The notes under the pieces: generated by a model
What the model was told of the DNA's origin: nothing
The model's database searches: none
The model's input: only the letters and a program-made list of their open reading frames with translations
Shown here: in pieces, positions 25,120-62,071 of the stretch
How the letters are laid out: each line of letters opens with the position of its first letter
How positions within the stretch are numbered: position 1 is the first letter of the stretch
Made by a program: the position numbers and the translations under genes
Source: an uncultured virus (IMG/VR IMGVR_UViG_3300032134_000001)
Lineage: Duplodnaviria > Heunggongvirae > Uroviricota > Caudoviricetes
IMG/VR virus record: IMGVR_UViG_3300032134_000001
Direction: 5' to 3' (one strand)
Length of the DNA stretch: 64,000 nt

Positions 25120-25122
25120 GGC

Positions 25123-25479: not shown

Positions 25480-25487
25480 GGTAGAGC

Positions 25488-25844: not shown

Positions 25845-25853
25845 GAGTACCGC

Positions 25854-36105: not shown

Positions 36106-36111
36106 CGTCGT

Positions 36112-37287: not shown

Positions 37288-37314
37288 GGTGTTGTCCTCA
37301 GAATCGCGGAAGGG

Positions 37315-43264: not shown

Positions 43265-43879
43265 TCAGTACATCGCCGCCTGGAAGTGGATGTTGGGCCC
43301 GAGGCCCCCGATGTTGTCCCACTGGAGCTGGAGCTGCCAGTAGCGAATCGGGTAGCCCTCGCCCAGCGTCTCGAACACCAGAACGATGGAGTCCGGCTGG
43401 TCCGTTCCGAGCATGACCTCGGAGCTGATGTCGATGCGAGGGGTCACACGCACGACAGGGTCGCGTCCAATCTGAGCCGGAAAGCCAGTGGACGGAGGTG
43501 TGGGGATGCCGACAGCTCGGGTTGGCCCGGCCTGCGTCACGTTGCCCCAGGTGGTGTTGGCTGACTCTCGGTACCCGACACGGAGGTTGTCCGTGTTCGT
43601 GACGGGGTTGATGAGGTTGAAGAACTGAATGTAGAGCCGAGCGCCGGAGTCCCAGATGGGCACACCGGTCTTCACCCCTCCTGGCTGGGAGGAGCGAAGA
43701 TCAGGGCGCAGGTCGAAGGTGGGGGTGTGCCAGGTAGCGAGGTCGTCGCCTCCCGGACCCACACCAACCCACGGTACAGGCATCCCCGGCTGGGTAGACC
43801 AAAGCGTAGTCGGAATCTCCTTCGCCGCAGGCGAAGGGATACTTCCGTAGGGGTTCCTGTAGTTCTCTTCGCGGCCCAC
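43265..43879 (-). CDS. beta-rich virion protein candidate (minor capsid/penton-like)
   Basis: RLYIQF, LRVGY, IRYWQLQLQW, IHFQAAMY strands. Confidence 0.55.
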   Translation of the reverse strand: MGREENYRNPYGSIPSPAAKEIPTTLWSTQPGMPVPWVGVGPGGDDLATWHTPTFDLRPDLRSSQPGGVKTGVPIWDSGARLYIQFFNLINPVTNTDNLRVGYRESANTTWGNVTQAGPTRAVGIPTPPSTGFPAQIGRDPVVRVTPRIDISSEVMLGTDQPDSIVLVFETLGEGYPIRYWQLQLQWDNIGGLGPNIHFQAAMY

Positions 43880-43891
43880 GGGCGGCTCCGA

Positions 43892-44473
43892 TCAGAAGGA
43901 GAAGTTCCGGGGTCCGCGCATCTCCAGGCACACCAGCGTGATGTCGATCCGAATGGTCGAGGCAGCCAGGGGAATGAGAAGAGGCGTGATGCCCAAGAGA
44001 AGCGTGGCTCCCTGGTCGATGTTGTAGCCGTGCCCGCCGATCTCACCGGGGTTCTCCGCCGTGCCCACCACAGTCGAAGCCAGCCGGGCGGCGGTCTGGA
44101 GCCGGTCCCCCGTCGTGTACTCCGACCTGAACAGGTAGGTGAGGTTCATGTTCTGCTCGGTGACCGTGTTCGGGACCGGCTGCATCGCACCTGCGTTGGT
44201 GAAGTGCGACATGGCTCCGTTGATGGCGATCAACCGGCAGGGCAAGTCGAACTGCACCGTGCGGATGGCCTCGGTGTTGATGGCGAAGTCAGCCTGGTTG
44301 CTGTCCATGCCTGCCGAGTACATGCGCACCTGGTAGCCGACGTTGACGTCGGTGCTGTACCAGGGGGCTGTCGGGTAGAACGGGAACCGGACGAACGGCT
44401 GGACACCACCCCCACCCAGCTGGGCGGAAGTGGGCATCGAGACGAGTGCCTGGCGCTGCTGGTGATCGGACAT
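43892..44473 (-). CDS. candidate single jelly-roll capsid protein 2
   Basis: About eight alternating strands, ends IRIDITLVCLE; has its own late-promoter element. Confidence 0.45.
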   Translation of the reverse strand: MSDHQQRQALVSMPTSAQLGGGGVQPFVRFPFYPTAPWYSTDVNVGYQVRMYSAGMDSNQADFAINTEAIRTVQFDLPCRLIAINGAMSHFTNAGAMQPVPNTVTEQNMNLTYLFRSEYTTGDRLQTAARLASTVVGTAENPGEIGGHGYNIDQGATLLLGITPLLIPLAASTIRIDITLVCLEMRGPRNFSF

Positions 44474-44507
44474 CGGGTTCCTCTCGCTGCGAGATAGCTA
44501 CTTGAGC

Positions 44508-44562
44508 ACCTTACCGGACCAGCTCTTCCTGGGCACGGCAGCGCTTGAACATGGAGGGCTAC
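44508..44562 (-). promoter_or_regulatory. putative late promoter GTAGCCC(44562)...GTGCCC...TAAGGT(44513)
   Basis: 49-nt offset with a one-mismatch upstream box. Confidence 0.6.
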
Positions 44563-44653
44563 AAAGCGCCCCGCGTTATGGTGCGGGGATGAGAAGCAAC
44601 TTCCCGGCCATGGAGATCACGACCAGCCCCCAGTGAGGGGTCGAGGAGTGATC

Positions 44654-44860
44654 GTGAACCACAAGAGGAAGGGCCCCAAGTCTACGCGGGCCGGCTGCTT
44701 GCTGTGCAAGCCCCACAAGCACCAGGGGCACCGGAGTGCCCGCTGGTCCCGGCAGGAGCAGCGAGCCCGTACAGCCGAAGCTGAGCAGCGTGTAGAAGCT
44801 GCTTCTCCAGACACAGAACCCCCGCCACCCGAGGGTGACGAGGGTCCGTGCAGTCGGTAG
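44654..44860 (+). CDS. small basic CxxC protein inserted antisense between the capsid candidates
   Basis: GAGGAG SD, NHKRKGPKSTRAGCLLCKPHK. Confidence 0.5.
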   Translation: MNHKRKGPKSTRAGCLLCKPHKHQGHRSARWSRQEQRARTAEAEQRVEAASPDTEPPPPEGDEGPCSR

Positions 44861-44890
44861 CAGAAGCCCGAAGGCTCCTGCCAGCAGGGC

Positions 44891-45601
44891 TCAGCCCAGC
44901 TCGATGACCGACTTGTAGTAGCCGAGGAGCACGATGCGGACGGCGACGCCCTGGCCCGTCGCTCCGAGACCGGACGCACGGGACCCGAACTGCACCAGGA
45001 CGGCGAAGGTCGAGTTGCCCGGCAGGGCCACGGGGTGACGACGGTACATCCAGATGCCGCCGTTGCCGTTGCCCATGGAACCGGAGTTCGCACCAGCAGC
45101 GTTCTGTGCGATGGCACCGAACGCGCCTCCGCCAGCACCGGCCAACATCAGGGGGCAGATGAACACCTGGGTCTGGGTGAAGTCCCAGAGCAGCACGCCG
45201 TTGTTGATGACGTTCTGGAGGTCGCTGACGAGGCCGAGGGTGTTGGCTCCGGCAACGCCGTCGGCGTTGAAGGGCACGTCGAGCTGGTCGTTGGCTGCGT
45301 CCCAGGCCATGACCTGACCGGCGACGCCGAACACGTCGTAGGCCTGGCCGGACGGGATTCGACCAGCTTCCTTGAGGTTGGTCTCGGTCACGGTCATGGC
45401 CGTGGGGAAGCCCTGGCCGGTCTGCCCGAGGGGCGTCGCGAACAGGCGGTTGCTGGTGTTGGCCAGCGCCGTGGCGGCAGCGGCCGCGCCGAGGGCGACA
45501 GTGCTGTAGAGGGTGATCTCACCGAACCGGAAGAGGTTCGAGGGCTGGTGCTGCGGGACACCGGGAATCGGGCCGGCACCGGGAGAGACGAGGGGCTGCA
45601 T
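44891..45601 (-). CDS. candidate major capsid protein (single jelly-roll type)
   Basis: LYST...LFATPLGQ...TETNLKEAGRIPSG..YDVFGV...VALPGNSTFAVLVQF...VRIVLLGY; Gly/Ala/Thr-rich, strongly biased codons; fold inferred, not computed. Confidence 0.5.
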   Translation of the reverse strand: MQPLVSPGAGPIPGVPQHQPSNLFRFGEITLYSTVALGAAAAATALANTSNRLFATPLGQTGQGFPTAMTVTETNLKEAGRIPSGQAYDVFGVAGQVMAWDAANDQLDVPFNADGVAGANTLGLVSDLQNVINNGVLLWDFTQTQVFICPLMLAGAGGGAFGAIAQNAAGANSGSMGNGNGGIWMYRRHPVALPGNSTFAVLVQFGSRASGLGATGQGVAVRIVLLGYYKSVIELG

Positions 45602-45713: not shown

Positions 45714-47819
45714 CTACAGGCCGGCACCGCCGAAGACGGTGGCGCCGTAGGCGCCGAAGACGCCACTGACGCCGTCGGGACCGGTCTGGCCGAGAGGGGC
45801 CAGCTCGGGAGCCGACAGCACCTGCTCCTGGGCCTGGACCTGGAGCTGCGAGAACGTGTCGAGCGCGTTCGAGCGGAGCTTCTTGATGACGATGACGCGC
45901 TGCTTGGGCGGCATCGCGGCCAGCTTCTGGACGTTGGCCCAGCCGATCATCTTGATCAGCCAGCCCCAGCGGTGTCCCGGCTTGGAGGCCAGGTGGGAAG
46001 CACCGCCACGGGTTCCGCCCATCCGCTGAACGCGGCGGGTCGGAGCACCGAAGCGCCGGTGGAAGGCACCGCGACCGTTGACGAGGGCCTGGCCCTCACC
46101 GAGGTCGAAGTCGGCCCCGCTGTAGTACGCATCGCCCAGGCTGGCCTGACCGTAGTCGTCGCCTTCCTCTGCGATGGCACCGAGCTGGTAGGCCATGCCG
46201 TCACCGTAGGCATCACCGAAGGTTCCGGTGTTCTCCAGCGCGAGTCCGCTCAGGTCGTCCTCGTAGAAGGCGCCGTAGTTGTCGAGCGCGAGCCCGGCGA
46301 TGTCAGCGTCTTCCGCGCCCTCGTCGTCACCACCGGCAGAGGTGCCGCCGGCGAAGTCGAGGATGGGACCGGCCATGATGATGCCCGTGCCGAGAGCCGA
46401 GCCGTAGGTCGAGAGCATGGGCTGACCCAGCTTCCGTCCCGCGATCTGGCTGATGGCGATCAGTGCGATGCCAGCGATGGTGCCCGAGACGGTGTTGTCC
46501 AGCTCCATGCCGCCGATGACGGGGATGGCATCCGGGACACTGAGGTCCAGGAGCTTCTCACCGATGACCGGGATCTTGGGCAGGAGGTCTTCCACCTTGT
46601 CAGCCACAAAGGCGTGGCCGAGCGCACCAGCCAGGCCCACCAGGACCAGCTTGCCTGCGTCAGCGGCCACGCCTCCGACGAAAGGGACAGGGTTGTCCAA
46701 TGCGAGGGCGCCGTAGTTGTCCAATGCGAGGGCGCCGTAGTTGTCGAGCGCGAGGGCTCCGTAGTTGTCCTGGGCGATGCCGTGCTTCTTGCGGTAGTGC
46801 TTCTTCGGGTGCCGCGGGTTGGCGCGAGCGCCACCCTTGTACATCACCGACAGCTCCTTCATGGAGAGGCCGGAACCCTTGTGGCTCTTGACGAACTTGA
46901 GCCAGGGGTTGTTCTTGGCAGCCTTCTTGGCCGACCGACGACGCTCGGCGGGGGTCCGCACGATCGGCTTGCCGGGGTACTGGGGCTTGAAGCCGCCCGT
47001 GATGAGCGTGCCGGAGCCCTTGGGCTTGCCGGTCTTGTAGTTGTGGCTTCCACCTGCGGCGGCGCCCCAGATGTCGCGGGAGCCCATGCGCTTGGCGCCC
47101 GGGTTCTTGCGAGCACGGACCGAGGCTTCGGCATCGGCCGGGCCGCCCCAGTAGGCGAGGCCAGCCTTGCGACCGACGCGGCCGGCGTTGTAGCCACGCG
47201 ACGTGACGCGGTCGACGATGACCGGCTGGCGGGTCACGTGACCGCGCTTGGTCTTGTAGCGGCGAGCGGGCCCGAGGGTCCGCTTCTTGCCCCACTTCAT
47301 GCGGCCGGCGGCCGTGGTGTGGAAGCGGTCGGAGTAGCCGGGGCGTCCGGTGAGGTCCATCTGGACGAACACGTCGATGACGGCCTGCTTGGCGGCGCGG
47401 CGAATGTCCGGGTCACCCTTGGGGAGACCGGCGTAGAACTTCTTGCGCTGGGCCTTGCTCATGCCCTTCAGCTCTGCGGAGGGCTTGCGGGCGAACTTGC
47501 CGCGGTACTGACCCTTGGCACCCTCGCCCCACTTGCTGGCGGCGGAGGTCCACTCGGCCACGAGCTTCGCAGCGTTGTGGTCGATGTAGCCGTAGGGATC
47601 GTTCGATCCGTAGGCTTCTTTGGTCAGGATGCGGGCGATCTTGTTGACCCGACGGTGGTCGTTCGGGTTGCGACGTGCGGATGCCATTTGGGACTTCCTG
47701 GGATTGGAGATGAGGATCGCCCCGTGGAGAGGCATGAAGTTGGAACTTGACGCGGCCACGGGGGCCTCCCTCCTCAGGGTGTCTTCAGCAATCTCTCGCG
47801 TGGCGGCCCATTTGTCCAT
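45714..47819 (-). CDS. 701-aa core/membrane precursor: basic RxNP-punctuated half, DNYGALAL repeats, hydrophobic segments, acidic YG-rich region
   Basis: ISNP, RRNP, RKNP, KNNP, RANP, LDNP; immediately upstream of the capsid candidate. Confidence 0.75.
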   Translation of the reverse strand: MDKWAATREIAEDTLRREAPVAASSSNFMPLHGAILISNPRKSQMASARRNPNDHRRVNKIARILTKEAYGSNDPYGYIDHNAAKLVAEWTSAASKWGEGAKGQYRGKFARKPSAELKGMSKAQRKKFYAGLPKGDPDIRRAAKQAVIDVFVQMDLTGRPGYSDRFHTTAAGRMKWGKKRTLGPARRYKTKRGHVTRQPVIVDRVTSRGYNAGRVGRKAGLAYWGGPADAEASVRARKNPGAKRMGSRDIWGAAAGGSHNYKTGKPKGSGTLITGGFKPQYPGKPIVRTPAERRRSAKKAAKNNPWLKFVKSHKGSGLSMKELSVMYKGGARANPRHPKKHYRKKHGIAQDNYGALALDNYGALALDNYGALALDNPVPFVGGVAADAGKLVLVGLAGALGHAFVADKVEDLLPKIPVIGEKLLDLSVPDAIPVIGGMELDNTVSGTIAGIALIAISQIAGRKLGQPMLSTYGSALGTGIIMAGPILDFAGGTSAGGDDEGAEDADIAGLALDNYGAFYEDDLSGLALENTGTFGDAYGDGMAYQLGAIAEEGDDYGQASLGDAYYSGADFDLGEGQALVNGRGAFHRRFGAPTRRVQRMGGTRGGASHLASKPGHRWGWLIKMIGWANVQKLAAMPPKQRVIVIKKLRSNALDTFSQLQVQAQEQVLSAPELAPLGQTGPDGVSGVFGAYGATVFGGAGL
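46692..46770. repeat. 24-bp tandem repeat x3 (plus partial) encoding DNYGALAL
   Basis: GTTGTCCAATGCGAGGGCGCCGTA twice, a variant third unit; related copy near 46270-46295. Confidence 0.9.
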
Positions 47820-47890: not shown

Positions 47891-48136
47891 ATGGCTAAAG
47901 AGCTGGTAGGGCATCACCTCCTGCGAGTACGAATCCGCCGCAGCATCTTCGAGAAGCTACAGGCGACCGCATTGGAAGAGTCCCAGCGAACAGGCGACCA
48001 CGTGACGGTCAGCGACCTGGTCCGGGCTGCCTGCTACAACTACCTGCTCATCCACGAAGCGGTGCAGAAGCTGGAGAACAGCCCGCCCGAGGAGATCGGG
48101 GACGCTGTGCTGGTCATCACGAGCCCGATGCTCTGA
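47891..48136 (+). CDS. ribbon-helix-helix-like DNA-binding protein
   Basis: LRVRIRRSIFEKLQ...TVSDLVRAAC; GGAGG SD. Confidence 0.6.
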   Translation: MAKELVGHHLLRVRIRRSIFEKLQATALEESQRTGDHVTVSDLVRAACYNYLLIHEAVQKLENSPPEEIGDAVLVITSPML

Positions 48137-48139
48137 GGC

Positions 48140-48508
48140 TCAGTCTCGGCTGCTGCTCACGAAGCCCATCACGACCCCGAAGAGCACGACCGGCCAGAAC
48201 CACTCCTTCTCGTAGAAGGGCTGGGGCTCATCGTGAAGCGGCGAGGAGTCGCCTTCCTGCCCGCTGGTGATCAACACCATCTCCTTGTCCCCGACGGGGA
48301 GGGGGGAGAGACCGGGGGAAGTCGCTTCTTCTGCCCGCCGCTTGGCCGCAGCTGCATGGCGGCCCGGGTGCAGGCTCGCCCACGAGATGTCGTTGCCGAC
48401 GAAGGGGATGGGCACCGACGCTTCCGCGCGGTCCGCCTCGAAGAAGTCCCACGAACCAGTCTCGGCCGTCAGGGGCCCCGAGTAGCCAGACGGCTGGAAG
48501 CTCGACAT
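48140..48508 (-). CDS. tail-anchored membrane protein, FQPS leader
   Basis: MSSFQPSGYSG...PFYEKEWFWPVVLFGVVMGFV. Confidence 0.65.
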   Translation of the reverse strand: MSSFQPSGYSGPLTAETGSWDFFEADRAEASVPIPFVGNDISWASLHPGRHAAAAKRRAEEATSPGLSPLPVGDKEMVLITSGQEGDSSPLHDEPQPFYEKEWFWPVVLFGVVMGFVSSSRD

Positions 48509-48510
48509 GC

Positions 48511-49068
48511 TCAGTCCTTCAGCAGGATGACGGCGGTTCCGAGGAGCAGGATGGTGCCCGAGACAGCCACCGGGATGAACCAGGGCTGCTTGTAGAAGGG
48601 CGTGTCTCCGAACGCGCTGCCCGTGTCGAGAGCCGACTGGCCCCCTCCGGTGATGGCCGCGATGGCCGCAGCGGGGGCGGGAGTGGAGGTGCTGCCACCC
48701 TTCTCGACGTTGTGATAGAACCATTTCGCTGCCGACTTCACAGCGGCGGCAGACTTGGGCGCACCCACAGAAGTGGCCCCGGCCTTGATGTCCCCGAAGT
48801 ACTTCGCCAGCTTCTTCGGGTTGGTGACCTTCGATGCTTCTGCTCGCATCGACGCGAGGTTGGCTCGGGTCTCGCCATCAAGGTGGCCGCGCTCAGCTTC
48901 GACAGCCCTGCCGACGTTGGCGAGGAAGCTGCTCATGCCCGCTGCCGTCGTCACCTGGGCCCCTGCGATGTCAGACAACCGAGAGTCAAGGCTCGGGTTG
49001 AGCTGTGCCGCCGTGGGGAGCCCGATCAAGGACTGCCTGTGGCTGTAGGGAGATGGTTGGAAGCGCAT
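48511..49068 (-). CDS. tail-anchored membrane protein, FQPS leader
   Basis: MRFQPSPYSH...PFYKQPWFIPVAVSGTILLLG. Confidence 0.7.
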   Translation of the reverse strand: MRFQPSPYSHRQSLIGLPTAAQLNPSLDSRLSDIAGAQVTTAAGMSSFLANVGRAVEAERGHLDGETRANLASMRAEASKVTNPKKLAKYFGDIKAGATSVGAPKSAAAVKSAAKWFYHNVEKGGSTSTPAPAAAIAAITGGGQSALDTGSAFGDTPFYKQPWFIPVAVSGTILLLGTAVILLKD

Positions 49069-49092
49069 GGCGTGTCCTCGAAGAGTGCTGTC

Positions 49093-49147
49093 AGGGTAGC
49101 TCAGCGCAGGGGAGCGAGCCGCCGGAGGGCTGAAGGTCGAGTGCTAC
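49093..49147 (-). promoter_or_regulatory. putative late promoter GTAGCAC(49147)...TACCCT(49098)
   Basis: 49-nt offset; GAGCTACCCTGA identical to the 16309 site. Confidence 0.7.
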
Positions 49148-49216
49148 CTCGCGGGGCCGTGCTCTCGCTTGACCGGAAGCCCCGCGCCGCGCCTGCTGCC
49201 TCCCGTGCCTGCTTGA

Positions 49217-49867
49217 TCAGTCCGTGATTCCCGGGGTTGGGGACGTGTAGTTGCCGCCGCAGATCCAGAGCCGGCCCTTCGCGTCGCAGCAGAGGATGGG
49301 GAAGTAGCAGCTCATCTCGCCCATGCGGTGGATGTAGAAGCTCGGCCCGTCGTCCTTCTTGTTGGTGTAGTAGACGACAGCGGTCATCACGCCGACGGGC
49401 TTGGCGCTGACGCGAGGGTAGCCGCCCCGGGCGTGTCGACCTCCGGCCAGCAGGGCCCATTCGGAGAGCTGCCGGGCGCCTACGCTGTTGTCACCCCAGA
49501 AGCGACCGGCCAGGCTCTTCCTCGCCTGCGGCTCGATGAGCATGTACAGGCGGTCGTCGGGATGCTCGGGGTCGAAGACCAGCTGGTTCTGCGCGGCCGA
49601 CGACTGAGTGAAGGCAATGGTTGTGTCCCGCCGCCTGCGCGGGTGCGTCCCGTCCTGGCTGGCGTTGGGGGCTCTGACGTGGATGCGGGCGAGGTTCCCG
49701 CACTCGATCAGCACGCCCTCGGGGTAGTCGGGGTCGTCCCACTCCACGAGCTTGAGCTGGCTGTCGAACTCGTCTGGTTCGTACCACTTCCAGTCCGCAG
49801 CCATCGTGCGGCCCCGCTCGTACTGCTTGGGGGTGAGCTTCCCGCGGTTCTTGCGTGCCTTCTTCAT
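49217..49867 (-). CDS. soluble globular protein of unknown function in the membrane-protein cluster
   Basis: Start MKKARKNRG by ATGA overlap; YIHRMGE...PIL...GRLWICGGNY...GITD. Confidence 0.65.
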   Translation of the reverse strand: MKKARKNRGKLTPKQYERGRTMAADWKWYEPDEFDSQLKLVEWDDPDYPEGVLIECGNLARIHVRAPNASQDGTHPRRRRDTTIAFTQSSAAQNQLVFDPEHPDDRLYMLIEPQARKSLAGRFWGDNSVGARQLSEWALLAGGRHARGGYPRVSAKPVGVMTAVVYYTNKKDDGPSFYIHRMGEMSCYFPILCCDAKGRLWICGGNYTSPTPGITD

Positions 49868-50946
49868 TCTCGATTCCTCACGTGCCCGATGACTGCCGAG
49901 GTGGCGACCAGAGCAAAGGAGATGCCCCCTGCCCACGCCAAGACTGTCACGGCACTAACGATGTCTTGGCCCTTCATCTCGCCCACCTTGACGGCGACGG
50001 ACTCCTGATAGGCCAGCTTGGCCTTCTCCTGCGCGACCTGAGCCTTGATCGCTTCGGACTCCTTGTCGAAGCCCCACTCCTCCAGGTTGGCCTGGAGCTT
50101 CTGCTGAAACTTACCGGCTGCGCCCTTCGCGATGGACTGCTTGACCGCAGCCCCGGCGGAGATGGCTCCTGTGACCAGAGCTGCCCCCTCCAAGATCGCA
50201 GCCACGGGGAGTGTGACAATGGCGGTCACCACGGAAGCCGACGCCGCGGCACTGGTGCCGGCTGCGATGTGGAGACCTGCCGAAGCGGCCCCCGTTGCGG
50301 CCGACGTGATGGCGGACCGCTTCATGCTGGCCCCCAGCATGGGGAGGGCTCGGGCAGGCCAGGCGACACCCTCAAGCTCGTGTCTCTGGACGATGCGGCG
50401 GATCTCCCCCGACGCTTTCTTGAGTGAGCCGTGGAAGTTCTTGCCCGTCGCCTTCGCGGCGACGCGGACCAGCTTCTTGTCCTGGGTGGTGCTCTGCTTC
50501 ATCTTCTGCGGCAGCGACTTGACGTTGATGTCCTCGTAGCCCTCGATGCCCGCGAGCTGGAGGGCGGTGAGGCCACCGAGGACGGTGCCGCGCCACTCGC
50601 TTCGGATCTGTGGGCGGGAGGGGCGGTACCCCCGAGCTGCTCCGGTGAGGCCAGAGCCGCCCATTCGCTGCCGCCGATACCAGGGGAACTTCACGGACCA
50701 GAGCTTCTTGTAGGTCGACTTCGGGTGGAGGCTGGGCCTCCGGCCCTTGGCCTTGGCCTTCAGCACGCCGGCCCTGTACTCCAGCCGGTCTGCCGCCTTC
50801 TTGTTCCCCCGCTTCCGCTTGCGCTTGGCGCGCTTCAGCTTGTTCTTGGCGCGGCCCTTCTTGCTCCAGATGTTCTGGAGCCAGCCGTGGTACTCGGCCT
50901 CCGACGCGAAGCTGTGCTCAGAGGGGTGGAACTCCAGCTCATACAC
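49864..50946 (-). CDS. basic membrane protein, FHPS leader (paralogue of 50939..51940)
   Basis: GTG start MYELEFHPSEHSF; EWRGTVLGGLTALQLAG; C-terminal TM. Confidence 0.7.
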   Translation of the reverse strand: MYELEFHPSEHSFASEAEYHGWLQNIWSKKGRAKNKLKRAKRKRKRGNKKAADRLEYRAGVLKAKAKGRRPSLHPKSTYKKLWSVKFPWYRRQRMGGSGLTGAARGYRPSRPQIRSEWRGTVLGGLTALQLAGIEGYEDINVKSLPQKMKQSTTQDKKLVRVAAKATGKNFHGSLKKASGEIRRIVQRHELEGVAWPARALPMLGASMKRSAITSAATGAASAGLHIAAGTSAAASASVVTAIVTLPVAAILEGAALVTGAISAGAAVKQSIAKGAAGKFQQKLQANLEEWGFDKESEAIKAQVAQEKAKLAYQESVAVKVGEMKGQDIVSAVTVLAWAGGISFALVATSAVIGHVRNRE

Positions 50947-51940
50947 TGCGGCCACGCCGGACCCACCACACCAGGCCCCCCACGAGCAGGACCCCGGAGA
51001 CTGCCGTGGCGATCTGGAGCTTCCGGCCCAGCGCCTTGCCCTCGATCTCGGCTTCCTGCTTGGCGACCTCGGTGGCAGCAGCAACTTCCTGCTTCATCGA
51101 GTCGGCCTGCATCCGAGCGAGCTGAACGGACTGCTGGACCCCGGCCTTCTCCAGCCCGCGAGCTGCCTTGTCGGTGAAGGCTGCCGTCTCCTTCTTGAGC
51201 AGCGCCCCGTGGGCGGACTCTTGGGCGGCGATGGCCATGGGGATGAGGCCGTAGGGCATCGGGACGATGGCGGTGGCCACCCCGGCCCCGGCTGCTCGGA
51301 CTGCTGCGCTGATGACAGCAGGCTGGATCATGATGAGCGCCCGGTAGTTCCAGGCCACGTTCTCCAGCTTGTGCTGAATCACCTTGGCGCGAATGGCCTC
51401 GGCAGCTGCCTTGAGGCTCTTCTTGCCCGCCAGGGCCATCAGCTTGGGGTCGTACTTGTTGCTCGGCGCGAGTGGCACCTTCACCTTGGTGAGGTCCAGC
51501 TCGGCGTAGCCGGGCACGCCCGCGGCCTGAAGCGCTTGGAGCCCGCCCAGGATGGTCGAGCGCCACTCCCGGTTCTGGAACATCGCAGGCGGTCGGGAGC
51601 CCTTGGCGATGGGCTGGCTCAGCTTCTCGTAGGCCATCCCGCCGACGAAGGTGTAGGCGACGGCCTGCTTGGCAGTGCTGGGCCGGTCGCCCCAGGGGTA
51701 CTTGGACGCCCACAGTGCCCGTGCCTTGGACTTCTGCGTGAGCTTCTTGAACTTCTTGCCCGACCTTCGCGCGTCGCGACGAGCCTCTCGGGTCGTCTGC
51801 CGCTCCTGCCGGGCCTCCTTGCCCACGAAGCCCTTGACCCGCTCCTTCAGCTTCAGCTCCATCTTGCCGTAGTCGCCCAGGTACTCCGCCTGGCGGGCAC
51901 CGGGGGGCACGAAGCTGTGGGGGGAGGGCTGGAACTGCAT
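50939..51940 (-). CDS. basic membrane protein, FQPS leader + DYG
   Basis: MQFQPSPHSF...LGDYGK; EWRSTILGGLQALQAAG; C-terminal TM. Confidence 0.7.
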   Translation of the reverse strand: MQFQPSPHSFVPPGARQAEYLGDYGKMELKLKERVKGFVGKEARQERQTTREARRDARRSGKKFKKLTQKSKARALWASKYPWGDRPSTAKQAVAYTFVGGMAYEKLSQPIAKGSRPPAMFQNREWRSTILGGLQALQAAGVPGYAELDLTKVKVPLAPSNKYDPKLMALAGKKSLKAAAEAIRAKVIQHKLENVAWNYRALIMIQPAVISAAVRAAGAGVATAIVPMPYGLIPMAIAAQESAHGALLKKETAAFTDKAARGLEKAGVQQSVQLARMQADSMKQEVAAATEVAKQEAEIEGKALGRKLQIATAVSGVLLVGGLVWWVRRGRSV

Positions 51941-52399
51941 CTACTTGAGCTGCGCCTGGAGGAGGCGGCGCTGCATCTTCTCAGTCTTGGTCTTCTGGCG
52001 GACGTAGTTGCCAATGAGCAGGGCAGTCAGGGCACCTGCCGCGAGCAGCACAGCGCCGCTGATCTTGCCCGCCTGGGTGGTGATGACCGCAGCCCTTTCC
52101 TCCCCGACCAGCTCTTCGAGCGCCCGGATCTCGGCCTGGAGGGACCGGATCTTCATCGCGTAGATGTTCCGCAGGAAGGAGCTGGGCGCCTTGTTGTACA
52201 TGTTGGTGTAGTTGGCGAGCGCCGCCTTCTTCTTCTCGTACTTCTCGCGCGGGTCACCGCCGAAGAGGAGAGCCGAGATGGCCGGAGCGTACTGCTCCAG
52301 AGCCTGTGCGGCCTGCTGCTGACTGCCGCCGTCCGCGGCCTCATCTGCACCGTAGGCACCGGCCACGTCGCCATAGTCGCTGGGGATGAAGTGGCTCAT
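51941..52399 (-). CDS. membrane protein, FIPS leader + DYG/AYG
   Basis: MSHFIPSDYGDVAGAYG; C-terminal TM. Confidence 0.7.
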   Translation of the reverse strand: MSHFIPSDYGDVAGAYGADEAADGGSQQQAAQALEQYAPAISALLFGGDPREKYEKKKAALANYTNMYNKAPSSFLRNIYAMKIRSLQAEIRALEELVGEERAAVITTQAGKISGAVLLAAGALTALLIGNYVRQKTKTEKMQRRLLQAQLK

Positions 52400-52866
52400 T
52401 CGTACTCGTCCTCGTACTCATAGTCGTAGTCGTCACTGCCGCCGCGACGGACTGCGACGACCGCTGCTGCGATGAGGCCCACGGTCATGAGGACCCCACC
52501 CACAACGAGGAGAGTCTTGGTGGTGCCGAGGCTCGCGACGGCAGCAGCAGCGCGGTTCGCTGCACCCTGAGCCAGCGACTGTTCGGTCTGGAGAGCCAGC
52601 AGCTTCTCCTGCTGCTTCGCGAGCTTCTGCTCGTGCTTCTGCTGTGACTTCAGCGCGGAGGCCTGGAAGCCCATCGTGATGCCAGTCGAAGCCAAGGCGC
52701 CGACGGCGGAGATCCCCGCAGCCCAGGCGTCAGCCTTGGCTCCCGCAGCTTGGGCCTGCGCCAGCTCTGTCTGTGAGGGCTGGCCGATCGTAGTCGCGTT
52801 GAACAGCTCCTCGGTGGGGTTCCGAAGAGCGTTGGCGCCCGAGTAGGGGGAAGGCTGGAAGCTCAT
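52396..52866 (-). CDS. tail-anchored membrane protein, FQPS leader (paralogue of 52863..53249)
   Basis: MSFQPSPYSG..LRNP; SQQKHEQKLAK...LQTEQ. Confidence 0.7.
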   Translation of the reverse strand: MSFQPSPYSGANALRNPTEELFNATTIGQPSQTELAQAQAAGAKADAWAAGISAVGALASTGITMGFQASALKSQQKHEQKLAKQQEKLLALQTEQSLAQGAANRAAAAVASLGTTKTLLVVGGVLMTVGLIAAAVVAVRRGGSDDYDYEYEDEYE

Positions 52867-53249
52867 TCTTCGTAGTCCTCCTCGTAGGTAGGCGGGCGGC
52901 GGTTGATGACGATGGCCCCCGCGATCATGCTCACCCCGACGAGGACCGCGGCGACGAGGAGGAGGGTCTTCTTGGACCCCCCTTCTTCGAGAACCCCAGC
53001 CGCCCGTGTGGCGGCCACCTGGGCCTCAACCTGCTCGGTCTGGAGACGGATCAGCTCCTCTTGCGCCTTGGCCAGGCCCTTCTCGTGCTTCTGCTGAGAC
53101 GCTTGGGCCTTCTTCCCGGCCGACACGCTGATGCCCGTCGCAGCAAGCTGACCAGCGACACCGATTGCCACTCCTACGACCTGAGCCCAGCCGTAGTCCC
53201 CGGAGTCCGAAGCAGGCCCCGAGTATGCCGATGGCTCGAAGGCCCGCAT
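52863..53249 (-). CDS. tail-anchored membrane protein, FEPS leader + DYG
   Basis: MRAFEPSAYSG...GDYGW; SQQKHEKGLAK...LQTEQ. Confidence 0.7.
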   Translation of the reverse strand: MRAFEPSAYSGPASDSGDYGWAQVVGVAIGVAGQLAATGISVSAGKKAQASQQKHEKGLAKAQEELIRLQTEQVEAQVAATRAAGVLEEGGSKKTLLLVAAVLVGVSMIAGAIVINRRPPTYEEDYEE

Positions 53250-53252
53250 CCG

Positions 53253-54068
53253 CTACTCCTCGTAGTCGTCGTCATCGTCTCGCGTGGCCAGGTACACCCC
53301 GCCGCCGATCAGGCCGAGGACCACGACGCCGCCGATGATGACACCCCAAGGGGCTCCGCCTCCGCCCGTGTCCTCGTAGGTCTCCTCCTCGAAGGTGAGG
53401 TCTTCCTGCGGGCCGAGGATGGACATGAGAGAGGGGAGGAGCTGGGCCGCAGCAGCGCCGATGCCCGCTCCGATGCCCGCACCTGTCGCTGCACTCTTGG
53501 TGGAGCTGGACGAGCTGCCGGAGGAGCCGCCACCCATGAGACTGGCGAGGAAGGAGTTGGCACCACTGCTGGAACCCCCCGCGTCTCCGGGGTGGTCGCC
53601 GTACCACTTGGCGACCTGCTTGGCGCCGGCGTGCGTCGGACCCCAGTGATCGCCCGTGTACTTCTGGCCCTTGGGGCCCACCACGTCCACGGAGTTGTCA
53701 GGGTGCTGCTTGTAGGTGTAGCCGTCGCCCGTGCCTGAGAGCAGGCGAGGCTCAGCCGGAGCCGAGGACGCACTGCTCGTGGAGCTGCTCTTGTCCTTCT
53801 TCCCGAACAGGTTCGCGAAGAAAGCGGTCTGGTCGGTCTTGTCCGCCTTCCGGTCTTCCTTCTTCTGGGCCTTCGCCTCGGCGGCTTCGAGCTTCTCCTC
53901 GTCCGTCTTCTTCTTGAAGATGTCGAAGAGACCGTCGTAGTCGTCCGGGTTGTGGATCGCCTCCATGGTCGGAGCATCCTCACCGACGCGCTGCTGCACC
54001 TTGCCCGGAAGATCGCCAAAGCCGGGCGGGAGGAAGTCCGAGGAGATGCTGCCGAAGTTGTCGTTCAT
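53253..54068 (-). CDS. tail-anchored membrane protein with DNFG/DYDG leader
   Basis: MNDNFG...HNPDDYDGLFDIFKKK; C-terminal TM then acidic tail. Confidence 0.7.
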   Translation of the reverse strand: MNDNFGSISSDFLPPGFGDLPGKVQQRVGEDAPTMEAIHNPDDYDGLFDIFKKKTDEEKLEAAEAKAQKKEDRKADKTDQTAFFANLFGKKDKSSSTSSASSAPAEPRLLSGTGDGYTYKQHPDNSVDVVGPKGQKYTGDHWGPTHAGAKQVAKWYGDHPGDAGGSSSGANSFLASLMGGGSSGSSSSSTKSAATGAGIGAGIGAAAAQLLPSLMSILGPQEDLTFEEETYEDTGGGGAPWGVIIGGVVVLGLIGGGVYLATRDDDDDYEE

Positions 54069-54333: not shown

Positions 54334-55092
54334 TCAGCGCCTGCGCAGGAGGAGATAGAGAACACCGACGCCACCAGCGATGACGATGGGGTTCTTGTAC
54401 CAGACCTCGCCTTCCTCGTTGGTGTAGCCGTCCAGCTCGTCGATGTGCTCGTCGAGCGTGGCGAGTGCCTTGTTGGCGTACTCGGGCACGTCCTCCAGGG
54501 AGAACTCGGAGGGGGCGAACTCGGGGTGAGGCTGGTCCTCGGAGGCGGCCTCAACGGCCTCCACCTCCGCGGGGGTGGCCGCAGGAGGAGGCTGGCCGCC
54601 CTCTTCCTCTTCGGTGAGGGCCTCCTGCTCCTGGCCGACCGGGTTGGCCACAGCCCGCTTCCAACCGCGAGGACCGGACTTCACCAGCGTGAGGTCCGGC
54701 TTCCGGGTCGGGAGCGGCGCTGCCACGCCCGTCTGAACCTGCTGGAGCTGTGCAGCAGCCAGCATCTCGTTGAGGGTCTTCGCTTCCTGGCGTAGTTGGA
54801 GCCCGATCTGCCGTCGGCGCTTCCCTGCCGTCTTCGAGAAGAGGGTGGTGAGGCCACGCACCTTCCTCCGCTGGCTGGCGATGTCAGCGCTGAGCTGGTC
54901 GGTCGGCTTGTAGTAGTGCAGGGACGCCTTGAGAGCCGCGATCTCGGTCAGCAGCACGCCGTTTCGCGCCTTGATGGCAGGACGACGGGGCGACGCCGGA
55001 GACAGCTTTCGCAGGATGCCGCGGTTGCGGGACACCTGGGCCTGGCGCTCCGCGATGTTGCGCTTGGTGACGATGAGAGTAGCAGAAGCCAC
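54334..55092 (-). CDS. basic/acidic bipartite tail-anchored protein
   Basis: Basic N-half, VANP, acidic C-half, WYKNPIVIAGGVGVLYLLLRRR. Confidence 0.7.
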   Translation of the reverse strand: MASATLIVTKRNIAERQAQVSRNRGILRKLSPASPRRPAIKARNGVLLTEIAALKASLHYYKPTDQLSADIASQRRKVRGLTTLFSKTAGKRRRQIGLQLRQEAKTLNEMLAAAQLQQVQTGVAAPLPTRKPDLTLVKSGPRGWKRAVANPVGQEQEALTEEEEGGQPPPAATPAEVEAVEAASEDQPHPEFAPSEFSLEDVPEYANKALATLDEHIDELDGYTNEEGEVWYKNPIVIAGGVGVLYLLLRRR

Positions 55093-55113: not shown

Positions 55114-55168
55114 TGTGTACCCCTTCGGCCCTCTGGCGGGAAGCCGGGGGCGCCAGACGCGGTGCTAC
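55114..55168 (-). promoter_or_regulatory. putative late promoter GTAGCAC(55168)...TACACA(55119)
   Basis: 49-nt offset; shares GTAGCACCGCGTCTG with the 62071 site. Confidence 0.65.
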
Positions 55169-55470
55169 AAGGAGTCGCCACTCTCCCTGTATTGGAGCAG
55201 GTCCCACGTCGCCTCTCCGAGGTCGGCCGCGAGCATCAGGTTGCCGTCTACCGCACACTCTGCCATCTGGCGGCGAAGCTCGGTAGCCACCTCTTCCGTG
55301 GACACCTCCGTCTGGTCCAGGAGAGCGATGCGGGCCTTCAGCCTCTTGCGGAGGAACTCTGCGACCTCGCGCTTGGTGTGGTCGTAGGTGACCTCACCGT
55401 CATCGACCCAGGGAGCCGAGGCTCCGAGGAAGGGCAGCTTGTCTCGCGCAGCGGCCATCTCAGCCGCCAT
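55165..55470 (-). CDS. hypothetical protein
   Basis: ORF whose TAG lies within the GTAGCAC box. Confidence 0.45.
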   Translation of the reverse strand: MAAEMAAARDKLPFLGASAPWVDDGEVTYDHTKREVAEFLRKRLKARIALLDQTEVSTEEVATELRRQMAECAVDGNLMLAADLGEATWDLLQYRESGDSL

Positions 55471-55536
55471 AGCCGCAGCCGTAGCCGCAGAGCCAAATGT
55501 GGTGACAGGTGGTGCCAGTCATGCTACCCCTCCTCC

Positions 55537-56148
55537 GTGAAGATCTGTACGTTTGCCGGGTGTGGCCGAAAGCATCAAGCCCTTGGCCTCTGCCAAGCGC
55601 ACTGGAAGCAGCAGCGCAAGGGCACGCCCTTGAAGCCGGTCGGGTGGCGGCTGGGGCCCAACGCTGTTGTGGAAGACGGCGACCGTTGCTGGCTCATCCT
55701 CACAGACATCCACGGTAGGGAGGTGGCCCGAACCTGCATCGACAGGGCGGACCGCGAACAGGTCTCTGCCCACCGCTGGAAGCTCAACGACAGGAAGACG
55801 AGGTACGTCGCTACACTGACGGGAGGAAAGAAGCAGTACCTCCATCGCTTCCTGATGCAACCCCCCGAAGGGTTCGAGGTGGACCACTGGGACAAGGACA
55901 CCCTCAACAACTGCCGCGCCAACCTGAAGGTCGTCGAGCCGCACCTCAACAAGCAGAACGTCTCCCGCCTCAACAACCTCCCCCGAGGCGTGAGCTACCG
56001 GGCCGACCGGGCCAACAGCAAGCCCTGGGTGGCCCGCGTGGTAACCGGAGGCAAGACCTACCGAGAGCACCACCCCACACAGGCTGAAGCAGAGGCAGCG
56101 GCCCTTCGCCTGAGAGCCCTTCACCTCACCCACTCCAACGAGGTGTAG
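55537..56148 (+). CDS. HNH endonuclease with AP2-like C-terminal domain
   Basis: CTFAGC..GLCQAH; YLHRFLM...VDH...LNNCRANL; RGVSY...WVARV...AEAAA. Confidence 0.8.
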   Translation: MKICTFAGCGRKHQALGLCQAHWKQQRKGTPLKPVGWRLGPNAVVEDGDRCWLILTDIHGREVARTCIDRADREQVSAHRWKLNDRKTRYVATLTGGKKQYLHRFLMQPPEGFEVDHWDKDTLNNCRANLKVVEPHLNKQNVSRLNNLPRGVSYRADRANSKPWVARVVTGGKTYREHHPTQAEAEAAALRLRALHLTHSNEV

Positions 56149-59500: not shown

Positions 59501-60990
59501 AAGCAGGCCTCGCGAGCAACCCGCGCCGGGTTCCCCCACAGGAGGGCCTCGCCCAGGGCGATCATGTTGCGGACAGGCTCCACCGTGGGGTTGTTGCCCG
59601 AGATGCGGTAGCCCTCCGTCTGCCCGCGCGGACCGGTAATGACGATGGCGACGGGTACGCCGCCCGTCAGGGAGCGGGTGACCTTGGGCATCGCCCGATA
59701 GAAGGTGGGGTAGACCTTCTTCCCGCGCCAAGCACCCTGCGCACCCTCCCAAGCAACCAGCAGACCGGAGAGGGACGGAGCACCCCGGGCTCCCGGTCCC
59801 GCAGAGTCCCCGCACTGCTTCCTGATCGCAGTCGTGAAGTTGTCCCAGTGCTTGTTGCCCCGCTGAAGGACCGCACCCACGCTGGACTTGCTGCCCGGCA
59901 GAATCTTGATGGTGCCGCTGCTGTACTGCCGACAGTTGTACCCCTGGACGTTGGGGCAGTCCTGGAAGGCTGCGCCGAAGGCGGCCTGGATGGCCTCAGT
60001 CCAGCCGATGGGCGCCAGGACCTCCTCGTAGAAGCCGAAGCGAGGGGGGAGTTCCCCCATGCGGTCCTGGTCCTTCGCTGCATGGTCCTTGCGGAACTTC
60101 CGCCACTTCGGAGACTCGGGGTTGCGCTGGCCTTCATGCCGACGCACGAGGTTCTCGTCCCCCTCGTCGAGGTTGAGGAGGAGCAGCTTTCGGGCGTACT
60201 CCGGGGGGATGTGAAGCGGGATGCCATCGACCACGACCCCACCCACGAGGGCAGTGATCGCTTCGATCTGCGTTGCTGCCTTCTCGATGATGGCACTGAC
60301 CTCGGGCAGGTCGGACATCCACACCAGCACACTCATCACGTACCGCTTCGCGAAGCCTGGGTTGATGGGCAAGACGTAGAGGTCGAGGTTCGTCGCGTCT
60401 GCACAGGAAGGCAGGAGGGGCCCGGTGGCACGAACCTTGGCGCCCTCAGGCGGAGCCCGGAAGAACTCGTAGATGGTGTTCCCGGCTCGATGGTTTTCCA
60501 GCTCGACTCCGGGAGGCGGAGTCATCCCGTACACGCGCACGAAGAACCACTCCAGCGGTGTGTCCTTGCTCACCACGGCTGACCGGACCACCTCGCCCTT
60601 CTCGATGCCCAGCAGCTGCGCGTTTCGGGAGGGCTCAGAGAGGAACCGCAGCCCGCCTGCCTTCAAGGCGTCGTAGGCCTTCTTGTTCGTGGAGAACATC
60701 GGGGCGAGCCCCGCGGCCTTGGCCTGATCGAGTCGGGGCTGGCGCTTCTTCTGGGCTGCGACCTTCTCACGCAGCTTGTGCCGGTCGAAGAGGAGTGGGT
60801 CGCGCTCTGCGGTGAGGCGCTTCTTCTCCGGCTTGTTCTTGGCCTGGCGGGCAGCTTGGAGCTGCTCGTTCAGGTCCTTGATGCGCTCTTCCAGCGCGAG
60901 GAGGTCCTTCTCCAAACGGCTGAGGCCGGGGTTCCTGCGGGACCGGAGCCGGCGCGGAGCCTTGACCCTGATGGGACGGCGTCGACTCAC
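56581..60990 (-). CDS. 1469-aa protein of unknown function with RRNP leader and internal KNP-Arg-RDNP linker
   Basis: MSRRRPIR...RSRRNPG; IKNPRRRRRGRRPRRSRGRSRDNP; GTGA-coupled to the protease gene. Confidence 0.75.
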   Translation of the reverse strand: MSRRRPIRVKAPRRLRSRRNPGLSRLEKDLLALEERIKDLNEQLQAARQAKNKPEKKRLTAERDPLLFDRHKLREKVAAQKKRQPRLDQAKAAGLAPMFSTNKKAYDALKAGGLRFLSEPSRNAQLLGIEKGEVVRSAVVSKDTPLEWFFVRVYGMTPPPGVELENHRAGNTIYEFFRAPPEGAKVRATGPLLPSCADATNLDLYVLPINPGFAKRYVMSVLVWMSDLPEVSAIIEKAATQIEAITALVGGVVVDGIPLHIPPEYARKLLLLNLDEGDENLVRRHEGQRNPESPKWRKFRKDHAAKDQDRMGELPPRFGFYEEVLAPIGWTEAIQAAFGAAFQDCPNVQGYNCRQYSSGTIKILPGSKSSVGAVLQRGNKHWDNFTTAIRKQCGDSAGPGARGAPSLSGLLVAWEGAQGAWRGKKVYPTFYRAMPKVTRSLTGGVPVAIVITGPRGQTEGYRISGNNPTVEPVRNMIALGEALLWGNPARVAREACFLLPPIVLKGMGLTKTEITGTKDYERLLALSPLSPMTHFRALAAKMDFPDQASLARAQELLVTPPRFFQSTPRAEWISFFGEIPQVQAWPGVYYNIVKWGFKQGIDRTAISGWMEDHDQHLHHYREIGDGAEITMAGAEFGSQRRTIESFTVDRPGGREQLRVHHLTPCAWAEVDFSQNLLDGTPGAGMVIPTRLVIFRRSRGGAVIPQLVYDLQEIREDHIEAWVDKPKKYVAPLRAKVMLINTALAIDEAKKVEDTGENPIMSPGAIRALLRAKALPLGSEQWFLALPRSESAAMLETLEQIPGRKGEEPLVRVKREVVWDDSYSPFYGSPALIPRVARDLLRVGVSTVGVPHLVPVPPDAAQPAIPARSEKARGTPARPASPPWTSQAAPYLFLSLPVRMKGGDGKWHTRMMRPGEDPVPNGYLNAYLRAFKFSPRSETQKGAVQAVVEGAEIEGKREKRGRPTEATRVATKRGFKGSGFYWLAAEVVKDLRLGRLTTTPTDQEVLYAAMRPAWPLIVQRMNEGLEDDEKLSPAMPFPFRAGQPGDPQLEREALAALEALMDPEDGELEVLFTEDDLIHPARYGLTGEDAETMGDFFHPDVQGVVHGIKNPRRRRRGRRPRRSRGRSRDNPWSRDERDRVAAWAARDEELGDVSFSRPKTNEEMFSAVEEVYPRAASQRALRTQDRLDALAVSEQDLFGSFRPGAVDPERDKTLRQAILSGALKLTEEDQAYLARHADLSLVEGKRILDERRRSKRRASMVTPSGALCKMYRNAARLKGYSPMLPVARPGTAWILVGPPVKEDGLTRVMAFRNGGYVDCDMLVPANQPLSFFLGKAIQGMVMWLAEKQIRTIRMAGGVHLGLIGSAQTRQLWRPGDHLDVQAMLKKAYSGEVTTHLVAADEAGRPDAHVLARDRAQVDFKNYAARQKKVAPPSSYPQYRRTKEAAVGDAAATGLSAPTLDLSDLSALEDE

Positions 60991-61997: not shown

Positions 61998-62016
61998 GGT
62001 GCTGACCTCCGCCGTC

Positions 62017-62071
62017 ACTCTACCGGCGCAGTCCTTGCCGGGCACTCATCTCGGCGCAGACGCGGTGCTAC
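62017..62071 (-). promoter_or_regulatory. putative late promoter GTAGCAC(62071)...GTGCCC...TAGAGT(62022)
   Basis: 49-nt offset. Confidence 0.7.

Follow-up and report, generated by a model that had tools for sequence, protein, structure and literature searches.

Bacteriophage T4 directs diverse internal proteins into its assembling particle by means of a short conserved N-terminal peptide, the capsid targeting sequence (CTS) (PMC3012670). A related arrangement is displayed by a 64,000-nucleotide stretch of DNA from an uncultured virus (IMG/VR record IMGVR_UViG_3300032134_000001; the whole stretch is termed the window), in which seven minus-strand genes, g1 to g7, located at positions 48140–53249, encode membrane-anchored proteins that begin with a common peptide of the form M-x(1-5)-F-x-P-S-x-[Y/H]-[S/G], termed the tag. 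As in T4, an N-terminal peptide is common to otherwise diverse proteins of one virus. In contrast, the sequence of the tag differs from the CTS, and the T4 cargo is soluble and resides inside a DNA-filled head whereas the proteins described here are membrane-anchored. By analogy with the T4 CTS, the tag may serve virion incorporation or docking, a reading with a substantial chance of being correct that falls short of probable. No Pfam or PHROG match to a T4-type prohead protease, scaffold or HK97-fold capsid was found within the window. The sites of the T4 prohead protease follow the consensus Leu/Ile-x-Glu, and no such pattern is present behind the tag.

Membrane-containing phages offer a second comparison, although the sorting of their membrane proteins is known only in outline. 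In PRD1/PR772 (PMC6750898), P16 clamps P3 trimers and fastens the vertex to the membrane, whereas the delivery proteins P7, P11, P14, P18, P32 and P34 include members that act in DNA delivery through the wall. The likeness lies in small virus-encoded membrane proteins, some of them linking membrane to shell. Similarly to PRD1 and PM2, the present locus displays a cluster of small membrane proteins, and its relative L008 joins PG_binding_1 domains to an anchor. In contrast, the passages on PR772 used here describe no common N-terminal tag for its membrane proteins, and the tagged proteins have no sequence similarity to PRD1/PR772 membrane proteins. No FtsK/HerA-type packaging ATPase was found within the 64-kb window, where the P-loop proteins detected are of the AAA_24 and AAA_23 types. 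Tectivirus genomes measure about 15 kb, compared with 167 kb for the contig to which the window belongs.

Bacterial microcompartments and encapsulins also rely on short terminal peptides, carried by unrelated cargo and read by a shell protein. These peptides are amphipathic helices or C-terminal Gly-rich sequences on soluble enzymes, whereas the tag consists of Pro, Ser and aromatic residues, is probably extended and resides on viral membrane proteins. A literature search at title and abstract level revealed no described N-terminal motif on tail-anchored phage proteins. The tag is best classed as a putative terminal targeting peptide of undescribed sequence, within an essentially undescribed lineage. 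If the docking reading is correct, the tag would provide a simple sequence key by which to list the membrane proteins of the particle in a lineage that lacks cultured representatives and is almost without annotation. A defined tag together with its receptor would then show how membrane proteins are sorted into a large bacterial virus particle, and the tag could serve as a portable loading tag.

Organization of the seven tagged genes

The tagged genes and their products are as follows.

g1, 52863–53249, minus strand: 128 residues; tag MRAFEPSAYSG (Phe codon at 53240); anchor at residues 97–115
g2, 52396–52866, minus strand: 156 residues; tag MSFQPSPYSG (Phe 52860); anchor at 119–137; paralogue of g1
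g3, 51941–52399, minus strand: 152 residues; tag MSHFIPSDYG (Phe 52390); anchor at 113–131; basic tail
g4, 50939–51940, minus strand: 333 residues; tag MQFQPSPHSF (Phe 51934); anchor at about 309–327
g5, 49864–50946, minus strand: 360 residues from a GTG start; tag YELEFHPSEHSF (Phe 50931); anchor at 329–347
g6, 48511–49068, minus strand: 185 residues; tag MRFQPSPYSH (Phe 49062); juxtamembrane PFYKQPWFIPV; anchor at 165–183
g7, 48140–48508, minus strand: 122 residues; tag MSSFQPSGYSG (Phe 48499); juxtamembrane PFYEKEWFWPV; short anchor

All seven N-termini quoted in an initial annotation of this DNA read as given in the translations, and the seven reading frames have a G+C content at third codon positions of 0.79–0.89. 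An in-frame stop lies 0–2 codons ahead of the ATG of g1 and g4, which therefore cannot start further upstream, and GAGGA-type Shine-Dalgarno-like strings are found 5–12 nt upstream of g1, g2, g3, g6 and g7 (5/7). The two starts that had become evident only from the motif, at 50946 and 48508, are sound, since the g5 GTG overlaps the stop codon of g4 (GTGTATGA) and the g7 ATG sits 2 nt past the g6 TGA.

A hydrophobic segment ending 2–21 residues short of the C-terminus is present in all seven proteins, in agreement with the earlier description of each as ending in a transmembrane helix. The g7 anchor is short, its best 15-mer reaching 2.07 on the Kyte–Doolittle (KD) scale and its 19-mer falling under the threshold used. 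While g3, g6 and g7 hold one membrane segment each, g4 and g5 contain a second one, at residues 208–226 and 234–252, respectively. Between tag and anchor, g1 displays a weak Gly/Ala-rich hydrophobic segment (residues 24–42) followed by a coiled coil; in 48 g1/g2 homologues the median KD of this N-proximal segment is 1.4, and 10 of them attain 1.6. Given the second segment of g4/g5 and the weak one of g1/g2, the tagged proteins would thus not all be strictly single-span. The first 20 residues are polar in 7/7 and no hydrophobic segment begins there. Prepilin, Sec, Tat and lipoprotein signals were considered and rejected, as no hydrophobic stretch follows the tag and neither an RR pair nor a Cys is present; the residue preceding the tag Phe in the seven proteins is A, S, H, Q, E, R and S. 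PEP-CTERM/LPXTG-type sorting was likewise rejected from the sequence itself.

The regions between tag and anchor are diverse. The N-terminal half of g4 is Lys/Arg-rich and is accompanied by the central hydrophobic segment at 208–226 and a coiled coil, g3 carries a conserved YG at residues 16–17, and the C-terminal tails include NRRPPTYEEDYEE in g1 and the acidic, Tyr-rich DDYDYEYEDEYE in g2. The bodies had been reported to differ apart from two paralogue pairs. These pairs, g1/g2 and g4/g5 (34% identity for the latter), are borne out, but g6 and g7 constitute a third, loose pair through a common PFY..WF.PV ahead of the anchor, and profile comparison links the tagged families over the coiled-coil plus anchor part (hhalign, 94.7% for g3 and 65% for g4/g5, each against the g1/g2 family). 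Acidic Tyr-rich tails that follow the anchor and one or two basic residues are seen in many proteins at 52863–54068 on the minus strand (YEEDYEE, DDYDYEYEDEYE, DDDDDYEE) and recur in distant homologues (P0156–P0203). Within the window, such tails also provide, through their GAG GAG codons, the Shine-Dalgarno-like string of the following gene.

Conservation of the tag at the protein level

The strict pattern F.P[ST].[YH][SG] matches the six-frame translation of the 64 kb 8 times, whereas 100 sequences simulated with a first-order Markov model averaged 0.19 matches and never exceeded 2, and the looser F.P[STF].[YHF] matches 11 times, 7 of these being gene starts. No further N-terminal copy was found elsewhere in the 64 kb by regular-expression scanning. 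The naive probability that at least 7 of the 25 genes of the block start with the tag is ~2e-24, a value that is overstated because some tagged genes are paralogues. A still looser signature, with F-x-P within 5 codons of the start, also takes in a 1518-residue protein (VSKFTPGQS) and a 595-residue protein of the related contig L010 (MSNFMPLSG); it was rejected because F.P alone is common and these two occurrences are not conserved between the window and L010.

Conservation in homologous genes, the lack of which the initial annotation had named as a refutation of its reading, is extensive, so that this check does not refute it. Pooled over three families with metagenomic homologues, 70/79 members display F.P[STFAY] in their first 25 residues. 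In the g1/g2 family, which comprises 49 proteins including the query (50%-identity representatives, HMMER over 1.84 billion representatives), F.P[ST] is present in 41/49 and the full F.P[ST].[YHF] in 33/49 within the same stretch. The g3 family carries the tag in 19/21 members, the two exceptions being short and lacking the N-terminal part of the alignment. In the g4/g5 family it is found in 8/9, with seven of the eight homologues, at 45–69% identity, displaying forms such as MEFQPSQYS, MTTFLPSAYS and MTQFQPSRFS, and the eighth, which lacks it, being called from a downstream Met. Tagged relatives span contigs of 58–66% G+C.

Among the 70 tag carriers the Phe is residue 3 or 4 in 62, Pro is followed by Ser in 67, Tyr, His or Phe occupies position +5 in 57 and Ser or Gly position +6 in 62, while Gln is found at +1 in 31. 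Positions −1, +4 and +7 onward are free, and the residues behind the tag are hypervariable, positions +7 to +11 holding under 1 bit each. A second element, Y-(x)-G, lies 7–18 residues past the Phe in 53/70, against 14/323 control stretches of the same proteins. A 42-row alignment of the g1/g2 family, with a mean column identity of 26%, is invariant only at the F, P and S of the tag; its rows had been picked for carrying the motif (P0159, P0167, P0178, P0181, P0192, P0193, P0198 and P0201, without F.P[ST], were left out, as was P0196).

Codon usage locates the constraint. Four contigs supply 12 tag instances, in which the codon of the first Ser is TCN 10 times and AGY twice, that of the second Ser is TCN 5 times and AGY 6 times, and all four Pro codons occur. 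The switches between TCN and AGY, together with the free synonymous variation, therefore place the constraint on the peptide and not on the RNA, under purifying selection: the tag is conserved at the protein level. This evidence bears directly on the proposal that the tag has no separate function, being either the relic of one much-duplicated ancestral gene or the outcome of a translation-initiation constraint on the mRNA. The similarity between family profiles in the coil-plus-anchor part does suggest common descent. However, the tag is the best conserved stretch, with hypervariable residues right behind it, and the synonymous variation excludes a constraint at the RNA level, so that an explanation without function can be given hardly any credence.

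Modularity of the tagged proteins and other tag-like sequences

The arrangement of the tagged genes is retained in related contigs. On the short marine contigs L005 and L007, homologues of g3 and g4 lie side by side and all four are tagged. The 10-kb contig L008 (58% G+C), whose g4 homologue is 39% identical, repeats the order of the window: a coiled-coil anchored protein, an 88-residue protein, an anchored protein with an acidic tail, g1/g2-like, g3-like and g4-like proteins, a further anchored protein, a 195-residue soluble protein and g6/g7-like proteins. The L008 tags read MAFVPSNTYS, (M)SKFIPYGTAYG, MTHTRFVPSTPADF, MSKFIPSTLADH, MTFQPSTFS and MFHPSPMSY, a divergence that leaves F-x-P-S as the surviving core.

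Apart from the tag at both starts, similarity between g6 and the g6-like protein of L008 is confined to the juxtamembrane region and the anchor (BLASTP E 0.001); the middle of the L008 protein is formed by a PG_binding_1 domain (Pfam PF01471, E 1e-11). The same domain occurs in a second tagged L008 protein (4e-9) and in the L008 anchored acidic-tail protein (9e-11), and the scores of the three counterparts, 45.3, 36.9 and 42.3 bits, all exceed the Pfam gathering score of 23. No PG_binding_1 match was obtained in g1–g7; within the window the domain is found in the lysin. The sharing of tag and anchor by proteins with differing middles indicates that the two elements frame an exchangeable middle. 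The tag is kept at a fixed N-terminal distance while the domains between tag and anchor swap. Elsewhere, contig L013 of the IMG/VR relative G001 encodes, at 1197–1826 on the plus strand, an untagged Phage_lysozyme protein (E 8e-18) that ends in a short hydrophobic stretch, below the anchor threshold, and then basic residues; it may be a wall-active enzyme tethered by its C-terminus.

Three other proteins of the block contain internal sequences that resemble the tag to different degrees.

352-residue protein, 60987–62045, minus strand: weak transglutaminase-like core (GWGDCDD), internal tag, linker, C-terminal anchor
271-residue anchored protein, 53253–54068, minus strand: directly upstream of g1; acidic tail RDDDDDYEE
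252-residue coiled-coil protein, 54334–55092, minus strand: C-terminal anchor; internal FAPSEFS (Phe 54519)

The internal copy of the 352-residue protein, FQPSQHS-T-DYG at residue 259 (Phe 61268), had been overlooked in the initial annotation. It lies 93 residues before the anchored end, and tag and anchor here make up a module to which an enzyme-like domain is fused in front. In the 271-residue protein, residues 11–17 (FLPPGFG) are possibly a degenerate tag; its positional counterpart in L008 displays ALPSGYG at the same place, the pair not being significantly similar. Of two peptides earlier listed as similar, FAPSEFS of the 252-residue protein lies away from the N-terminus, has no counterpart in the L008 homologue and is probably a chance match, and MGFITS (37287) departs from the motif in a protein without an anchor.

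The 352-residue protein also enters the question of whether the tag is a processing or modification site, at which a viral or host enzyme would trim the first 8–20 residues or modify Ser or Tyr during maturation. An enzyme of this kind would find a tag at a fixed distance from the N-terminus with conserved, modifiable Ser and Tyr, and the same operon holds this transglutaminase-core-like, cysteine-enzyme-like protein with its internal tag and anchor. The T4 targeting peptide is itself removed after use, and trimming and targeting can coexist. However, no protease family was detected above threshold, the Transglut_core match of the 352-residue protein attains 21.9 bits against a cut-off of 23, the low information at +7 to +11 leaves no scissile-site-like pattern behind the tag, and the presence of Gln at +1 in 31/70 only does not fit a transglutaminase Gln substrate. 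Processing or modification is accordingly an unlikely account of the tag.

A delivery role is more improbable still. The tag, made first and fixed in position, could be read at the ribosome exit or by a holding chaperone, keeping the protein insertion-competent or bringing it to an assembly patch, and C-terminal anchors, which lie here 2–21 residues from the C-terminus, cannot be read co-translationally. Against this, the known tail-anchor pathways read the hydrophobic segment and not the N-terminus, no chaperone-like gene was identified, and the internal tag copy of the 352-residue protein stands behind a 258-residue domain.

Proposed function and candidate partners

In the docking reading, M-x(1-2)-F-x-P-S-x-[Y/H]-S with the usual Y-(x)-G would constitute a linear recognition tag on the non-anchored end of late proteins. 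One common conserved receptor, for which the shell, a scaffold protein or another assembly factor are candidates, would read it and pull otherwise unrelated membrane proteins into the assembling particle. Such an address label is suggested by the fixed position of the tag, by selection at the protein level and by its being the only constant part beside swapped middles. Each protein would be laid out as a tag, an exchangeable middle (coiled coil, Lys/Arg-rich or peptidoglycan-binding) and a C-terminal anchor. Since there is no export signal and the anchor is at the far C-terminus, the N-terminal part would be made facing the cytoplasm. The peptidoglycan-binding middles of some relatives suggest that the proteins come into play only afterwards, on contact of the particle with the wall of its next host; a cytoplasmic domain of this kind is useless to the producing cell but understandable in a protein that is carried within the particle. 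The proteins might be placed on the outer face of an internal membrane or beneath an envelope capable of fusing with the outer membrane, or they might be ejected, and in each layout the tag would sit at the end facing other particle proteins during assembly.

The peptidoglycan-binding domains of the relatives can also be taken to point to the envelope of the infected cell, where a host-directed motif would act by binding a conserved host protein, in superinfection exclusion, lysis timing or envelope remodelling. Hub proteins typically bind short aromatic/Pro motifs, and the tagged proteins are without detectable structural-protein homology. Yet a peptidoglycan-binding domain synthesised in the cytoplasm could not get to the wall of the producing cell in the absence of an export signal, the conservation of the tag over contigs of 58–66% G+C probably spans different hosts, and the genes belong to a long one-strand block with very large conserved unannotatable proteins, the typical layout of a structural module. 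A host-directed role therefore has a low probability, and we return to docking in a particle to consider its possible partners.

The best conserved gene of the block lies inside the cluster and is itself neither tagged nor anchored.

195-residue soluble protein, 49217–49804, minus strand: inside the cluster; no tag, no anchor

It occupies the same position in L008 and L010. At E<=1e-3 it has 141 homologues, counted as 90%-identity cluster representatives, on contigs of up to 187 kb, so that the lineage is sizeable, yet almost invisible to virus catalogues. The protein ends in an invariant, flexible C-terminal tail, GGNYTSPTPGITD, and its AlphaFold2 (AF2) model is confident, with a predicted local distance difference test score (pLDDT) of 88.7. 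The model has no Foldseek match at E<=0.001 in the PDB or BFVD, its best VIA-align Z is 3.6, with many rows at Z 2–3.5 that correspond to tail-tube/Hcp proteins and are too weak to use, and the profile gave 0 matches against PDB sequences. Complex prediction with residues 1–40 of the g1/g2 family yielded 0.06 against a mark of 0.32, a value that, in a run without controls, speaks neither for nor against binding.

Two further groups of late proteins bear on the nature of the shell.

Three Lys/Arg-rich low-complexity proteins of 255, 391 and 327 residues, 35338–38298, minus strand: isoelectric points 9.6–11.5
Three acidic proteins of 193–236 residues, 43265–45601: better shell candidates

The initial annotation had proposed that the motif recruits membrane proteins to the capsid lattice or to a protease. 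A selectively maintained peptide on membrane-anchored viral proteins agrees with docking, but no protease was identified, and the proteins at 35338–38298, which occupy the sole further genes of any size around the cited position 37287, do not look shell-like: with long Lys/Arg runs, acidic Asp/Glu/Tyr patches and C-terminal anchors in two of them, they look like membrane-tethered nucleic-acid-condensing proteins. Among the acidic proteins, those of 236 and 193 residues have PM2 P2/PRD1 P3 as nearest named ESM Atlas clusters, at 0.75–0.77, below the lead line of 0.9, and no Pfam match at E<=1. A double-jelly-roll capsid is here a weak lead. Atlas clusters with 55–380 members attest to the existence of homologues of these acidic proteins. 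The IMG/VR relative encodes a member of PHROG 1645 (annotated 'virion structural protein', E 2e-82), a family that is absent from the window and occurs in cyanomyoviruses, phage HMO-2011 and Virus Rctr197k, so that the particle of this lineage may be tailed.

Several observations weigh against docking in a particle. The binding role of the tag, the membership of the virion and the orientation of the proteins are all deduced from sequence. No receptor was found for the tag, neither Pfam nor PHROG reveals a capsid, portal, terminase or packaging ATPase gene in the 64-kb window, and the AF2 model of the 236-residue capsid candidate has a pLDDT of 34.8 (two-row alignment). The tag is also not universal: F.P[ST] is missing from 8/49 g1/g2 representatives, the g6-like protein of L010 begins MAISEQEYAG with no tag, and the Tyr is missing from 4/6 tags in L008. 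The internal copy of the 352-residue protein may mean that a free N-terminus of the tag is not required. The tagged families may be old paralogues, as the hhalign values over the coil-plus-anchor part would suggest, in which case the tag would be shared partly by inheritance rather than by modular exchange. Finally, the topology of g1/g2 is uncertain. Its charge pattern, with an acidic N-tail in 40/48, a positive loop in 40/48 and a weak first hydrophobic segment, would also fit a hairpin that places the tag across the membrane.

A wider proposal, which we regard as doubtful in its entirety, is that the tag is the sorting code of an unrecognised lineage of large (about 150–190 kb) bacterial viruses. 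Their particles would contain a lipid membrane with a dozen or more tail-anchored proteins, each docked to one conserved viral receptor through a bipartite label (F-x-P-S-x-Y-S ... Y-G), and new cargo, for example a peptidoglycan binder or an enzyme, would be recruited by mere placement between tag and anchor.

Short repeats of another kind are present in two late proteins. A 701-residue protein (45714–47819, minus strand) contains three tandem DNYGALAL repeats, L010 2748–4487 having GVFGGIALDNE, together with basic-x-N-P motifs (ARRNP, ARKNP, AKNNP, ARANP) and Gly-rich hydrophobic stretches. The 391-residue protein (36112–37287) holds GAWDYEGGALNNP repeated twice. These may be short motifs of a second family, or sites of cleavage.

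Genomic context of the tagged block

The 64-kb window is part of a 167,369-bp metagenomic contig and is GC-rich (64–68%). Its left half holds replication and recombination genes recognised by Pfam (AAA_24, AAA_23 ATPase, SNF2 helicase, tyrosine integrase), and the window also encodes HNH nucleases and one tRNA-Arg. Other features of this part are as follows.

PolA-UDG fusion, 4935–8807, plus strand: 1290 residues; N-terminal uracil-DNA-glycosylase-superfamily domain (UDG), 3'-5' exonuclease and family A DNA polymerase
Second, partial PolA-like gene, 33669–34874, minus strand
PG_binding_1+CHAP lysin, 12164–12991: assigned from Pfam domains

Rightward of ~33.7 kb, up to the end of the window, the genes form a single compact late block, almost all of them on the minus strand. 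Apart from an opposite-strand HNH insertion, its proteins gave zero significant Pfam, PHROG or NCBIfam matches, the Transglut_core match being sub-threshold, and PDB sequence searches with the 1518-, 1469-, 779- and 352-residue proteins were empty. A C-terminal anchor, taken as a hydrophobic segment adjoining the C-terminus, is present in at least 12 of the 28 late-block proteins examined.

The element behaves as a large virus-like element. This viral context is drawn from the PolA-UDG fusion, whose best match among GenBank phages, at 27% identity, comes from Virus Rctr197k, from the SNF2, integrase, HNH and lysin genes, from one related 41-kb contig in IMG/VR and from the nearest ESM Atlas clusters of two block proteins, which are 80–100% viral. 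Further IMG/VR searches returned no other contig; the matches L001 and L002 were discarded as weak and of low complexity, and L003 and L004 as unrelated pattern matches. Four block proteins had no tblastn match among 50,697 GenBank phage records, and pattern scans of GTDB species genomes with two family alignments gave no copy, no prophage and no host clue.

In the left part of the window, four tandem head-to-tail open reading frames of exactly 118 residues each, without a family match, follow a 128-residue one at 24763–26210 on the plus strand. The late block contains homing-type HNH genes, whose location differs between the window (55162–56148, plus strand) and L010 (5414–7204), and L008 has no HNH gene at the corresponding position between its 124- and 497-residue genes. 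The L010 HNH endonuclease is fused to a DNA methylase domain. Between the 701-residue gene and g7 lies a small, conserved opposite-strand gene (MAKELVGHHLLRVRIRRSIFEKLQ...), at 47900–48136 on the plus strand of the window and at 2291–2959 on the minus strand of L010; with its position kept in L010, it may be a regulator of the late block.

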